From Gammaproteobacteria bacterium (GTDB taxonomy: Bacteria > Pseudomonadota > Gammaproteobacteria > UBA1113): a stretch of DNA of 64,000 nucleotides. Made by a program: the position numbers. The stretch covers positions 26,441 through 90,440 of the forward strand of contig CBDDLJ010000011.1 in the NCBI GenBank assembly GCA_965230635.1, read 5' to 3'. Positions 21,001-30,000 of this stretch are shown in pieces (position 1 is the stretch's first letter; every line of letters begins with the position of its first letter).

Positions 21001-24000
21001 AATTTAGCAAAAAAGTTAATAACTTAAGAGCTTTTTTAAAAACTCTTTAGCTATACTTATTACTTGTATCAAAATGAAATTAACAAATACGGATAATATT
21101 ATGCAGCTAATTGAAAATAACAAAACAAATTTTTTATTTTCCGATTATCGCTCACTTCCAGGTGTTTACGATGAATTATTTTCAAGTGAAGGTGATTTTC
21201 ATGCACAGATAAGTCAGGTAGGCTCTCTAATAAGTAAAATTAGTCGTAATAAATTTCGAACCAATATGCGTATTGCTAACTCATCATTTAGAAGAGGTGG
21301 TATTACATTTAATGTTTATTCAGATAAAAAAAATACTGAAAAAATTTTTCCCTTTGACTTAATACCTCGTATTATAACTAAAGCGGAATGGGGAAAAATA
21401 GATTACGGATTAAAACAGCGCGTAACCGCTTTGAATAAATTTCTTTATGACATTTATCATAAGCAAACAATTTTAAGATCAAACATCATTCCTAAACATA
21501 TTCTTGGAAAATTAAAAGGCTTCGATCCGCGGTTGCGAGGAATTAGCCCTCCTGGTGGAATGTATATTCACGTTGCTGGTATTGATCTAGTCAAAGATCA
21601 GTCTGGACAATTTCTAGTATTAGAAGATAATCTGCGCACACCTTCTGGTGTATCTTATGTCTTGGAAAATCGAATTATAATGAAACGTTTATTTCCAGAA
21701 GTATTTTCTGAAGCCAATGTAAAACCGGTAGATGAATATCCTATACAGTTAAGACGCCATTTAAGCTCTTTAGTCAATAAAGACATTAGTAATCCGCTTG
21801 CCGTAGTACTTACGCCTGGTTCTTTTAACTCGGCTTATTTTGAACATTGCTTTTTAGCTAGAAAAATGGGTTGTGAAGCTGTAAAAGGTCAAGACTTATT
21901 TGCCCATAAGAAAAAAATCTACTTAAAAACAACAAAAGGACCAAAGCAAGTTCATATCATATACCGCCGAATAGATGATAACTTTCTCGATGCAAAATTT
22001 TTTAGAAGTGACAGTCTATTAGGCATTGACTATCTCATGGAAGCTTATAAAGCGGGTAATGTCGTTATTGCAAATGCCGTTGGGAACGGTGTTGCAGATG
22101 ACAAGGGAATTTACCCCTATGTCCCTGATATGATTCGATATTATTTAGGTGAAAAGCCTATTTTATCACAAATAAAAACCTTTCATTGCTCTGAGAAAAA
22201 AGAATTAAATCATGTATTAAAAAACACTGAAAAATTTGTTATAAAACAAGTAGATGGATCGGGAGGATATGGTTTGCTGATTGGTGCCACTGCTTCTAAA
22301 AAAGAAATCACTGATTTTAAAACACTTATTAAATCGGATCCTGAACGTTATGTTGCTCAACCACTAGTTGAATTATCCACTTGCCCCACTTTTAATGGCA
22401 AAGGATTTGTTGCAAGACGAATTGACTTTCGCCCTTTTATTATTTCAGGTGAAAACCAGTGGGTATTACCAGGAGGTTTAACTCGAGTTGCACTTGTTGA
22501 AGGATCTTATGTTGTCAATTCAAGTCAAGGTGGCGGTTCAAAAGATACCTGGGTTCTGGAGAATGATTTATGATATCACGGACAGCAGAACAATGTTTTT
22601 GGTTATATCGCCATATTGAAAGAATTGACAATATTACTAGATTTATGAGAGTTAATCAAAATTTTATCCTAGATGCAAATCTAGATAATTATGACACATG
22701 GTTCCCCTTTATTATTGTTGTTGGTGAAGAGCAACGATTCATTGAATTATATGGTAAATCAGAAATTACTAACAATGAATTAGTGCAAGAATATTTGGTA
22801 TGGGATGAAGCAAATCCAGTTTCCGTTTTCTCTTTAAGCAAATCTGCTAGAGAAAATGCTCGTATTGTTCGTGATACAATTAATATAGAAATGTGGGAGT
22901 CAATCAATTCATTTTGGCTATGGCTATTGAACAGCAAAAGCAGAAAATTATTTAATAGAGACAAACAAGCGTTTTATAACGTGTTGAAAAAAAATATGGA
23001 AATATTTCATGGCCAATTCTATAACACCATGCTACAGGAAGAAGCTTTTTATTTTATGCAGCTGGGGTTAATGCTAGAGCGAATCAACCAAACTGCCCGT
23101 ATACTGGATGTAAAATCACATCGTATAGCACTAAGACTTGATGATAGCAAAAGAGAATCTGCAGTAGAAACACTGTACTGGTTAAGCTTACTAAAATTCT
23201 TTACTGCCAGTGAATCTTTTCTCAAGTGCTCCGGCTTCACTATTAATCGAGAAAATGTTGCTTCTTTTTTGATTTTTGAAGAAAAATTTCCTAGAAGCAT
23301 TTTATTTTGCTTAAACAAAGTCAATGACTGCTTAAATAAGTTACAAGTTGATAATGAGTTAAACATAGAAAAGCCTATAAAAATTCAACTAAAAAATTTA
23401 TATAAAACGGTCAGTGAAAACAATATAAAAGCTATTTTTAATAGTGGCCTGCATTATTTCTTAACAGAACTTATCAAAAAAACTAGCATGCTTTGTGATA
23501 ACATACAAAATGAATATTTTGATCCAGATATATCCTGCATTAAGCAATTAGAGGGAATGGTTTTATGAGTCAGCTATTGGCATTATCATTTGACTCTGTC
23601 ACAGCGCCTTCTTTAACCTTAGGGCAAGACCATAAAGCGAATGAAGAAAAATTATATGGCTGGGGGTTGTCTTGGTATACGGGTGAAGATTATGCAGCAA
23701 CCATCTTGAAAGATTCTAATTTTCAGAGTCAAGCTTTAACCACACGTTTATTAGATGATTGGAAGAAATTTCAATCTACTTTATTTATTTGTCACTTGCG
23801 AGGAGCGACAAAAAGTATTAAGGAAAAAAACACACAGCCTTTTGGAAGAACTTATGCAGCAAGAAACTGGGTTTTTAGCCATAATGGTAGTTTAAATAAT
23901 GACTATAAAACACGCTTATCTCTTGGAACAAATCCTATTTTTGAGCCACTAGGCAATACTGACTCTGAACTCATTTTTTGTTGGCTAATAACAAAAATGC

Positions 24001-27000: not shown

Positions 27001-30000
27001 ATTATTTACCAATCAAAAAGCGTTACTTTCACGCAAGGCACTGATGAAAAAAATAAGCCAGCGCAAAAAATGTTTAGCCAAAACAATAACAAAACACTTT
27101 ATACGAACCGCGCTATGCATTGAGATTCGCAATAATAAACTTCATGTGTTTATGCCCTATATAACTGATCTAGATGCTTACTTAGAGTTATTGATAGTCA
27201 TAGAACACATTGCACAAAAACATGATGTGTCGCTTATTATTGAAGGATATAAGCCGCCACAAGATAATCGTATGCAATGCTTTAGCATAACACCTGATCC
27301 AGGTGTTTTAGAAGTCAATGTGCATCCAGCAAACAACTGGCAAGAATTAGTCAATATTCATGAAAACTTATATCAACTGGCAAAGAAAAACACATTATCT
27401 GCTGAAAAATACTTAAAAGATGGTCGAACTATTGGATCAGGCGGTGGTTGCCACATCACGCTAGGCGGCCCTATTCCTAAGGATAGCCCTTTTTTACGGC
27501 GCCCTGATGTACTGCAAAGCATGATTACTTTTTGGCAACACCACCCTGCTTTATCTTATTTGTTTTCAAGCCTATTTATCGGTGCAACCAGTCAAGCACC
27601 TCGCATTGACGAGGCCAGACACGATTCCTTATACGAATTAGAAATAGCTTTTGCACAAATGCCTAAAGGCGAAACACATCAATACTGGCTAGTTGATAGA
27701 TTGCTACGTCATTTGTTGGTTGATGTGACAGGAAACACACATCGTGCTGAATTTTGTATTGATAAATTATTTTCACCAGAAAGTGATTTTGGCCGGCAAG
27801 GTATTGTAGAATTGCGCTCATTTGAAATGCAGCCTCATGCACATATGAACTTATTACAATGTCTACTAGTCCGCGCATTATTTTCTAGCTTTTGGAAAAA
27901 GCCTTACCATCATCGTTTGATTCGATGGAACACCGAGTTAAGCGATCGCTTTATGTTACCACACTTCATCTGGCGTGATTTACTTGATATTCTAGCATTT
28001 CTAGATAATAACGGTTATCAATTTCAAGCAGATTGGTTCAAACCGATTTTTAATTTTCGTTTTCCTAGTTACGGAAAATTAAAAGTAGATGATATACAGT
28101 TAACCTTAAATATGGCATTAGAACCTTGGCCTGTTTTAGGCGAAGAAACACATACTGGTCTTACCAGCAGATTAGTTGACTCTGCTTTAGAACGATTACA
28201 AATAAAAGTAACCGGATTAATTCAAGATAAGTACATAGTAACATGTAACGGATACAAATTACCACTACACGCAACAGGAGTAAAAGGTGAATTTATTGCA
28301 GGCGTGCGCTTTAAAGCTTGGGAACTAAATAACACACTACATCCCAATTTGCCGGCTAATCGATCGTTAGTTTTTGATATCATTGATATTCATCACCAAC
28401 GTTCTATTGGTGGCTGTCAGTATTTTGTTGCGCATCCTGGTGGAAGAAATTACGATGATTATCCGATTAACGAATCTGAAGCAAAAGCAAGATTACTAGC
28501 TAGATTCCATGCGCATGGCCATACGCCAGGTGTAGCCGCAGTAAAACAGCCACTAGAAAATCCAGAGTACCCCTATACACTTGACTTACGTATGCAGCCT
28601 AGTGTAAAAAAAGAAGGAACAAAAACAGCTGAGCCCAAAACAAAACAAAATGAGAACGATTTCACCTATTCATTACTGTAAATATATTCTCAGTCTTATA
28701 ACATGTCTACTGAGCTTGCTTAGCTATGCTAGTAATGAATCATTATTACCAGAAGGTTTTGTCTACTTACACGATATCGAGCCTTCGATTATACAAGAAA
28801 TACGCTACGCCAGTTACCATAATTTTGTTGGGCGACCACTTTCTGGTTATCATAAGCCCGTATGCATTCTGACAAAAGAAGCTGCTACTGCTTTGCAAAA
28901 AGTACAAAAAAAATTACTCCGTCAGGGTTATTCACTGAAAGTTTACGACTGCTACCGACCACAAACGGCCGTCAATGATATAAAAATATGGAGCAAAAAA
29001 AAACAAGAGCAATCGATGAAGAAAGAATTTTTCCCCAGAGAGAATAAAGCAGATTTCTTTAAGAAAGGTTACGTTGCCGCCTACTCTGGCCACAGTCGTG
29101 GTAGCACTGTCGACTTAACAATTATTAAGACAAATCAGCAAGAGCAAGAAATCTATTATAAAAGTCAACCGCTGGTTGCCTGCTATGCTAATTATCGGCA
29201 ACGTTTTAGAGACAATAGTATTGATTTTGGCACTGGGTTTGACTGTTTAGATAAAACAGCTCGCTATCATTACCCTGGTATTTCTAAACAAGCTTACCAC
29301 AACCGAAAGTTTTTTCGACATAGCATGCAACAAGCTGGATTTAAGCCCTACCCAAAAGAATGGTGGCACTTTACACTAAAGAAAGAGCCATTCAAACACT
29401 ACTTTGATTTTCCAGTTCAATAATGTAATTATTATCGTAATCGCAAGCCTAAAACAAGCAAAACAAGACCCGATAAAATAGCATATAAACCAATTAGCCA
29501 AGCCAATGCTAAAATACCATCTGCAGGGTAAAGCATCAGCAACATAGCAAATAATAAGGTAATAATTCCTGATATAGCTAACCAAAAATAATGTCTTACT
29601 GTTCGCCAACGCATAGCAATAGAAAGTTGCATAACACCAGATAATATGGCCCAAAATGCAACAATATACAACAACATAACTGCACTAATACTGGATGAAA
29701 GCAGCACAATTAAGCCAATGACAAAGCCTAGTAAACCTTCCATGAATTGCAATCTCCAATGCGGATCGCTCTTTTTATGTGTCACAGCGTAATACAGACC
29801 AAATAAGCCAGCTACTAGCACATAAGCACCAAAGAAAATCATTAACAGCGTTAATGATAATAATGGATTGTATACAACCAATAGTCCAAAGAGAATACTA
29901 ATCACACCGCGTATAATCATGATAGGTAAAACTTTCTTTGCAACATCCATGTTTCTCTTCTCCTTAAATTATTAAATTAACTTATTCCAACTCTTTTTTT

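Follow-up and report, generated by a model that had tools for sequence, protein, structure and literature searches.

A widespread ATP-grasp and transglutaminase module, a candidate system for amide-bond chemistry, and its lineage-restricted VanX-like neighbor in a gammaproteobacterial contig

The stretch of DNA analyzed here (the window) comprises 64,000 nucleotides (nt) of contig CBDDLJ010000011.1, from a gammaproteobacterium (assembly GCA_965230635.1). At positions 21074-29423 it carries five consecutive open reading frames (ORFs), all on the plus strand, which encode a circularly permuted ATP-grasp ligase (gene 1), an Alpha-E protein (gene 2), an amidotransferase-fold domain fused to a transglutaminase (gene 3), a transglutaminase fused to DUF2126 (gene 4), and a VanX-like dipeptidase (gene 5). 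We consider it reasonably probable that genes 1 to 4 specify a cytoplasmic, ATP-driven system for making and removing an amide bond and that gene 5 encodes a separate, exported dipeptidase; the details of this scheme are less secure than its outline. The argument has two parts: the first four genes recur together across distant phyla, and the VanX-like gene accompanies them in a single sublineage.

The first-pass annotation of this DNA had recognized five genes packed as a tight operon, assigned the first four to the known COG2308-COG2307-COG1305 neighborhood and noted a secreted VanX-type gene overlapping its 3' end. ORF prediction and Pfam searches agree on each of these points. Gene 1 (21074-22573; PF14403, 500.8 bits; PF04174, 435.5 bits) is of the COG2308 type, and gene 2 (22570-23568) matches PF04168 (COG2307) over its full length with 253.2 bits. 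Gene 3 (23565-25370) joins GATase_4 (182.6 bits) to Bact_transglu_N and Transglut_core, and gene 4 (25364-28681) joins the latter two domains to DUF2126 (PF09899, 1104.8 bits). Gene 5 (28650-29423) is a VanX/PcgL-type zinc D-Ala-D-Ala dipeptidase of the M15D group (Peptidase_M15, PF01427, 116.7 bits). All five scores are far over threshold, and consecutive genes overlap by 4, 4, 7, and 32 nt. The families had been named correctly except for one omission: gene 4 had been called just a transglutaminase, with DUF2126 (residues 269-1076) overlooked. The simplest reading of this layout is that genes 1 to 5 share one transcript. No terminator-like site was found at the gene 4/5 junction, and terminator-like matches do not outnumber those in shuffled sequence. 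From the sequence, the presumed promoter region would be the AT-rich intergenic stretch of 238 nt preceding gene 1 (20836-21073, plus strand), where sigma-70-like matches are weak and fewer than in shuffled sequence; no sigma-54-like site was found 5' of gene 1.

Judged by its recurrence, the conserved module consists of genes 1 to 4, with DUF2126 a regular member in this branch. A scan for relatives of gene 3, taking one genome per GTDB species, matched at least 578 species and returned 80 loci. In 44 of these (the well-flanked loci) the sequence extends 8 kb or more to either side, and partner genes were sought within 10 kb of the fusion gene. The 44 come from Myxococcota, Planctomycetota, Proteobacteria, and Melainabacteria-type genomes; 35 of them contain the ATP-grasp gene, 33 Alpha-E, 34 transglutaminase-DUF2126, and 27 all three. 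Moreover, the order and strand of the module genes vary between loci, which argues that the association is under selection rather than inherited as synteny. Six-frame ORF clustering of 82 loci revealed no further conserved neighbor family beyond a handful of loci; this clustering contains some opposite-strand artifacts in high-GC loci and was used only to show that no other family recurs.

By Pfam content and recurrence, then, the cluster belongs to a known, computationally described neighborhood and is not a new kind of system. Iyer et al. are said to have predicted a module of this ATP-grasp, Alpha-E, and transglutaminase kind on computational grounds in 2009. With or without the proteasome-like protein Anbu, the COG2308-COG2307-COG1305 neighborhood is functionally unsolved (PMC3235984, PMC5666114, PMC6376114) and is among the most widespread bacterial clusters lacking known function. 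It includes the "Anbu operon" (Valas and Bourne 2008, PMC3235984), and structural and biochemical work on the Anbu variant gave no substrate (PMC6376114, PMC5666114). The later Anbu literature contained nothing on function, and a literature search on DUF2126 and GATase_4 returned nothing relevant. A 2026 preprint tested the Mycobacterium tuberculosis homologues Rv2411c and Rv2567 only as candidates, which failed, for gamma-aminobutyric acid (GABA)-trehalose synthesis. Here, none of the five products matched the proteasome family, and Anbu was not a regular neighbor in the 82 loci, a result obtained without a search using an Anbu sequence itself.

The gene 1 product matches PDB entry 3N6X, a "putative glutathionylspermidine synthase", with an E value of 3e-158. 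Because of this closeness we assign it, on sequence, to the glutathionylspermidine-synthetase branch of the carboxylate-amine ligases and not to the D-Ala-D-Ala ligase branch. The exact 499-residue product is absent from the protein collection, so the true start may lie a little downstream of 21074. Gene 2 follows directly, and Alpha-E stands beside the ATP-grasp gene in 33 of the 44 well-flanked loci; no solved relative of Alpha-E was found by sequence. In one relative of the cluster, L002, Alpha-E is called as two ORFs of 235 and 96 residues (8990-10004 of that locus), a split that may reflect a frameshift, a pseudogene, or an assembly error.

Gene 4 begins with a transglutaminase-like domain (residues 1-268; triad C177, H222, D238), and the remaining three quarters or so, residues 269-1076, match DUF2126, a "putative amidoligase" domain, over profile positions 1-826 of 826. 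The combination is very widespread and unusually conserved: it has at least 8000 homologous clusters, proteins from different phyla are some 48-50% identical, and column identity averages 65%. The Cys-His-Asp triads of both transglutaminase domains, in genes 3 and 4, are invariant among homologues. No solved relative of the DUF2126 part was found by sequence. In several loci of Planctomycetota and Polyangiaceae (L007, L009, L010, L015, L023, L027, and L056), a second, shorter ORF adjoins the full-length gene and resembles the C-terminal half of DUF2126 only (~28-33% identity to residues ~540-1076).

The product of gene 3 comprises an N-terminal nucleophile (Ntn) domain at residues 1-266, matching GATase_4, and a transglutaminase-like domain at residues ~305-595 with the triad C488, H529, D545. 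Its N terminus reads MSQLL, and position 1 of the GATase_4 profile aligns to residue 1; Ser2 therefore occupies the place of the YafJ-type Cys2. We speak of an amidotransferase-fold domain and not of an amidotransferase because the nucleophilic Cys of the class-II amidotransferases is replaced. The AlphaFold model (predicted local distance difference test, pLDDT, 80.9) gives this N-terminal domain the alpha-beta-beta-alpha fold of Ntn proteins. Foldseek matched the model to YafJ-like 1TE5 (TM-score normalized to the target, TMt, 0.81; E value 9e-17) and also to EgtC (4ZFJ/K/L), the glutaminase domain of PurF, and beta-lactam synthetase. Of these, EgtC is a gamma-glutamyl amidase, and beta-lactam synthetase has an amidotransferase-fold domain without the nucleophile. 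The C-terminal half matched the transglutaminase-like protease 3ISR (TMt 0.79), whose fold the transglutaminase domain of gene 4 shares as well.

Homologues of gene 3 form more than 1500 protein clusters, and we counted architectures and N termini in the best 120 of ~1500. All 120 listed have the same fused architecture, so the fusion, previously singled out as a distinguishing feature of this genome, is the rule of the family. The replacement of Cys2 by Ser2 had been read correctly from MSQLL but is likewise not peculiar to this protein: among 109 alignable homologues the nucleophile position holds Ser in 75, Thr in 33 (together 108 of 109), Gly in one, and Cys in none. The residue is at position 2 in 70 of the 109 and is preceded by extra residues in 39. 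Most Thr forms have a conserved (R/A)EHxxT motif ahead of the nucleophile position, a leader that looks like a self-cleaved Ntn propeptide. Thr-type homologues, found among P0020-P0117 (for example P0027, P0034, and P0041), have 10-40 extra N-terminal residues ending in this motif; the few that carry a source name come from Myxococcota-type or Planctomycetota genomes. Ser and Thr both serve as Ntn nucleophiles in other families, and a Met-Ser N terminus is a good substrate for Met removal. Of the glutamine-pocket residues, the gene 3 product has R79, N107-G108, and D133. When counted over 32 homologues, C488, H529, D545, D133, G108, and H106 are invariant, R79 is kept in 28, and N107 in only 19. 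On balance, the data lean to a Ser/Thr Ntn hydrolase rather than a ligand-binding remnant.

The gene 5 product scores 116.7 bits against a PF01427 cut-off of 27 and matches VanX (PDB 1R44) with an E value of 6e-39. Its motifs YRPQ, SGHSRGSTVDLT, and EWWH align with those of 1R44, so that the His, Asp, and His that bind zinc are kept, as are Arg and Glu of the catalytic site; the conserved pattern is YRP, SxHSRGSxxD, EWWH. The protein has a 28-residue insertion relative to VanX (residues 163-190) and falls under the equivalog cut-offs for VanX (NF033115, 183.3 against 320) and DdpX (PRK10178, 96 against 176). A Sec-type hydrophobic signal sequence of ~27 residues precedes the mature part, and 96 of 120 gene 5 homologues have a signal sequence, each ahead of a conserved LPxGFVYL mature start. 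No N-terminal hydrophobic segment or membrane-spanning stretch was found in the products of genes 1 to 4. Thus, the gene 5 product looks exported and the other four look cytoplasmic. The most economical reading is that gene 5 specifies a periplasmic, peptidoglycan-related dipeptidase of D-Ala-D-Ala type, comparable to Salmonella PcgL, which Hilbert et al. reportedly placed in the periplasm in 1999.

The adjacency of the VanX-like gene to the cluster is not private to this genome. In all four relatives whose gene 3 homologue is 58-59% identical, VanX lies directly downstream of the cluster: L001 (spacing +66 nt), L002 (+13), L091 (-7), and L097 (~+90). In L092 (53%) VanX is one gene away, with a ribosome-hibernation gene between, and it adjoins LpxK; in L093 and L094 (50%) there is no VanX, and a malic enzyme gene follows the cluster. 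Further out, none of 159 other loci (80 from genomes and 79 from metagenomes; 40-46% identity) has a VanX-like gene within 9-10 kb. Moreover, three of the four adjacent cases have other neighbors in common: L001, L002, and L097 all carry AddA upstream, and two of them, L001 and L097, carry LpxK-MsbA downstream (the fourth, L091, is a contig of 8.6 kb that stops at VanX, leaving its flanks unreadable). These flanks stay shared although AddB is only ~31% identical; conservation of the VanX adjacency thus does not exceed that of genes with plainly no relation to the cluster. The first-pass annotation had taken VanX as a hint that the product or substrate contains D-amino-acid dipeptide bonds. The adjacency on which the hint was built does recur, but in one sublineage only, and the hint is weak.

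Sampling from the VanX side gives a similar picture. None of six independently sampled VanX homologues lies beside the cluster, and two of the six fall in the same neighbor-joining clade as the cluster-adjacent ones. Their neighbors are, in turn, YkuD and an ATP-binding cassette (ABC) transporter; a GGDEF gene; a major facilitator superfamily (MFS) transporter; NamZ, a beta-lactamase-like gene, and, not far off, YkuD; a PBP4-type Peptidase_S13; and a mixed set on a contig that also has a second M15 gene next to YkuD and SLT. Several of these are peptidoglycan-remodeling or recycling genes. The 88.5-kb contig L096 carries two Peptidase_M15 paralogues, one beside YkuD and an SLT lytic transglycosylase, together with Rep3, ParA/ParB, and AbiE genes, and may be a plasmid. 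The most economical reading of these comparisons is that VanX acquired its place behind the cluster a single time, within one Legionellales-like sublineage. Gene 5 is probably co-transcribed with the cluster, yet outside the conserved module.

From these folds and catalytic residues we infer the chemistry of the module and the direction in which it would run. The ATP-grasp enzyme, helped by Alpha-E, would use ATP to join a carboxylate to an amine, and DUF2126 might perform a second ligation of the same type. The two Cys-His-Asp domains of transglutaminase fold, with the Ser/Thr Ntn domain, would then transfer, trim, or hydrolyze the amide so formed, whose bond is probably of gamma-glutamyl or isopeptide type. 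The outcome would be a build-and-remove cycle on a peptide, a protein side chain, or a small amine. Here the amidotransferase-fold domain, joined as it is to the first transglutaminase, would fill the slot that Anbu holds elsewhere. The VanX-like protein, though probably read from the cluster transcript, would act in another compartment on peptidoglycan-derived dipeptides and would not be a component of the module. It is possible, and we propose it tentatively, that the gene 3 domain works through a Ser or Thr nucleophile, Ser being exposed when Met is removed and Thr when the (R/A)EHxxT leader cleaves itself off, and in this way stands in for Anbu.

Several points weigh against parts of this scheme. 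Its chemistry is derived from folds. For DUF2126, the Foldseek matches of the gene 4 model (pLDDT 75.4) to glutamine synthetases are weak (E values 0.02-0.07, TMt ~0.3), which is compatible with the Pfam "amidoligase" label and no proof of it. In the Ntn domain, only 19 of the 32 homologues retain the oxyanion Asn107, and extended N termini are frequent in the family. For these reasons the domain might serve as a non-catalytic binding or regulatory module, as in beta-lactam synthetase, presenting glutamine or a gamma-glutamyl ligand to the fused transglutaminase and leaving two transglutaminase centers to do the chemistry. The absence of Cys from all 109 alignable homologues would fit such a dead domain, as would the 39 in which Ser or Thr is not N-terminal unless processed, and beta-lactam synthetase is itself among the Foldseek matches. 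We nevertheless think this rather unlikely: 108 of the 109 have Ser or Thr at a position that has not drifted freely, both residues act as Ntn nucleophiles elsewhere, and Met-Ser readily loses its Met. In addition, the extended forms share (R/A)EHxxT, as expected of an autoprocessed propeptide, and Asp133, Gly108, and His106 of the pocket do not vary. A different use of the same parts would make the module a nitrogen-scavenging or storage device that handles free amides or amino acids, for ammonia release or turnover of a storage peptide, with no protein modification. Two papers, citing Hervas 2008, report Anbu-type versions as induced under nitrogen starvation (PMC6376114, PMC5666114). An amidotransferase fold, a possible glutamine-synthetase-like domain, and ammonia-releasing transglutaminases are combined here, and L092 has a gene for glutamate dehydrogenase just upstream. 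However, those expression data concern a different cluster variant in other bacteria, the upstream region here has no sigma-54-type promoter, and no transporter or nitrogen regulator is a conserved neighbor, which makes a nitrogen device an unlikely account of genes 1 to 4.

The VanX-like dipeptidase could also be a working part, with the cluster making, tagging, or cross-linking a product held by D-amino-acid dipeptide bonds (stem peptide or a peptidoglycan-like polymer) that the dipeptidase trims or recycles. The 32-nt overlap with gene 4 and the 7-nt overlap in L091 make co-transcription very probable, no terminator separates the two genes, and the adjacency recurs in four relatives, surviving in L002 though the downstream genes there differ. 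D-Ala-D-Ala ligase, moreover, is itself an ATP-grasp enzyme. Against this stand the 159 cluster loci that lack a VanX-like gene within 9-10 kb, the intervening ribosome-hibernation gene in L092, and the absence of VanX from L093 and L094. The three of four adjacent cases that are readable all belong to one syntenic block with the unrelated AddA and LpxK-MsbA. Furthermore, the signal peptide would take the VanX-like protein away from partners that look cytoplasmic, the ATP-grasp enzyme is of glutathionylspermidine-synthetase and not Ddl type, and the six independently sampled homologues lie in other contexts. We regard a part for VanX in the system as very improbable, and a lineage-specific recruitment of VanX to the cluster chemistry as just as improbable. 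With a four-gene cytoplasmic module and a separate exported dipeptidase as the preferred reading, the VanX gene should not guide substrate hypotheses, which steers away from muropeptide analysis; the comparison points instead to cytoplasmic gamma-glutamyl or isopeptide chemistry and to N-terminal processing of gene 3.

The window has a G+C content of ~35%, and no tRNA or Rfam-recognized RNA was found in it. Upstream of the cluster are AddB/AddA-like genes; downstream, on the opposite strand, are DUF308, LpxK, and MsbA. The AddA-like ORF as listed opens with TTG at 17335 and so shares 113 nt (17335-17447) with the AddB-like ORF; its real start is probably further downstream. Just 5' of these genes, at 14098-14652 on the minus strand, is a gene for a PagL-type lipid A 3-O-deacylase, so that, with LpxK and MsbA, the cluster has several lipid A genes around it. 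Ankyrin, leucine-rich repeat (LRR)/RickCE-like, and NACHT proteins are also encoded in the window. Metagenome-assembled genomes of Legionellales, Legionellaceae, Coxiellaceae, and unclassified Gammaproteobacteria hold the closest relatives of the VanX-like protein that bear a name. The organism is likely a Legionellales-like intracellular gammaproteobacterium, an affiliation read solely from the names of these VanX homologues. PADLOC found no defense-system model that the cluster proteins match.

Between msbA and comEC, which are adjacent in the syntenic relative L001, lie ~27 kb (33014-60307) that look like an inserted island of eukaryote-like effector genes. They include genes for a NACHT protein, a PRiA4_ORF3-like protein, ankyrin-repeat proteins, an IS110 transposase, an LRR and RickCE-like (deubiquitinase-type) protein, and a DDE transposase. 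The NACHT gene (33937-38337, minus strand) has a G+C content of 43-45% against ~35%. It contains a tandem array at 34838-36338 of 14.3 copies of 105 nt, 78% matching, which gives the protein ~14 repeats, each 35 residues long, in its C-terminal half. Two minus-strand ORFs (40055-43318 and 45641-48190) are paralogues with 67% identity over 726 residues, and only the former has an ankyrin-repeat N terminus. The IS110 transposase gene (43367-44956) sits between them.

Three known systems, together with the VanX relatives, place these proteins. Gene 5 belongs to the same M15D fold family as VanX (1R44), Escherichia coli DdpX, and Salmonella PcgL and keeps their zinc ligands and their motifs with the catalytic Arg and Glu; PcgL, which has been named a D-Ala-D-Ala dipeptidase (PMC7933661), also has an export signal. 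In contrast to VanX and DdpX, gene 5 falls below the equivalog cut-offs, has the insertion, and is not linked to vanH/vanA or ddp genes; its substrate is a prediction. In glutathionylspermidine synthetase/amidase, too, the ligase is a circularly permuted ATP-grasp enzyme, and its partner is a thiol amidase able to undo the bond; here, however, ligase and hydrolases are separate proteins, and the hydrolases have transglutaminase and Ntn folds, not CHAP. YafJ/PA1307 (1TE5) and EgtC (4ZFJ) have the fold of the gene 3 Ntn domain, its MxxLL start, and its HNG and TDSE motifs, and EgtC shows that the GATase_4 family can cut gamma-glutamyl amides of larger molecules. They differ in having Cys2 where this protein has Ser2 and the fusion family Ser or Thr; in that family, moreover, the oxyanion Asn is not conserved and the domain is always fused to a transglutaminase. 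The nearest likeness is to the Anbu operon, which has the ATP-grasp, Alpha-E, and transglutaminase genes in the same order and tightly packed, and in which a component of Ntn-hydrolase fold also accompanies the transglutaminase. There, this component is Anbu, a proteasome-beta-like Thr1 Ntn protein encoded by a fourth gene, whereas here the transglutaminase is itself fused to an amidotransferase-fold domain in which Ser or Thr replaces Cys, and a second transglutaminase fused to DUF2126 belongs to the module. If the proposed Ser/Thr mechanism is true, this possibly self-processing version would be the first hydroxyl-nucleophile enzyme of the class-II amidotransferase fold and, being monomeric and fused, a more tractable handle on what the unsolved Anbu-type operons do.

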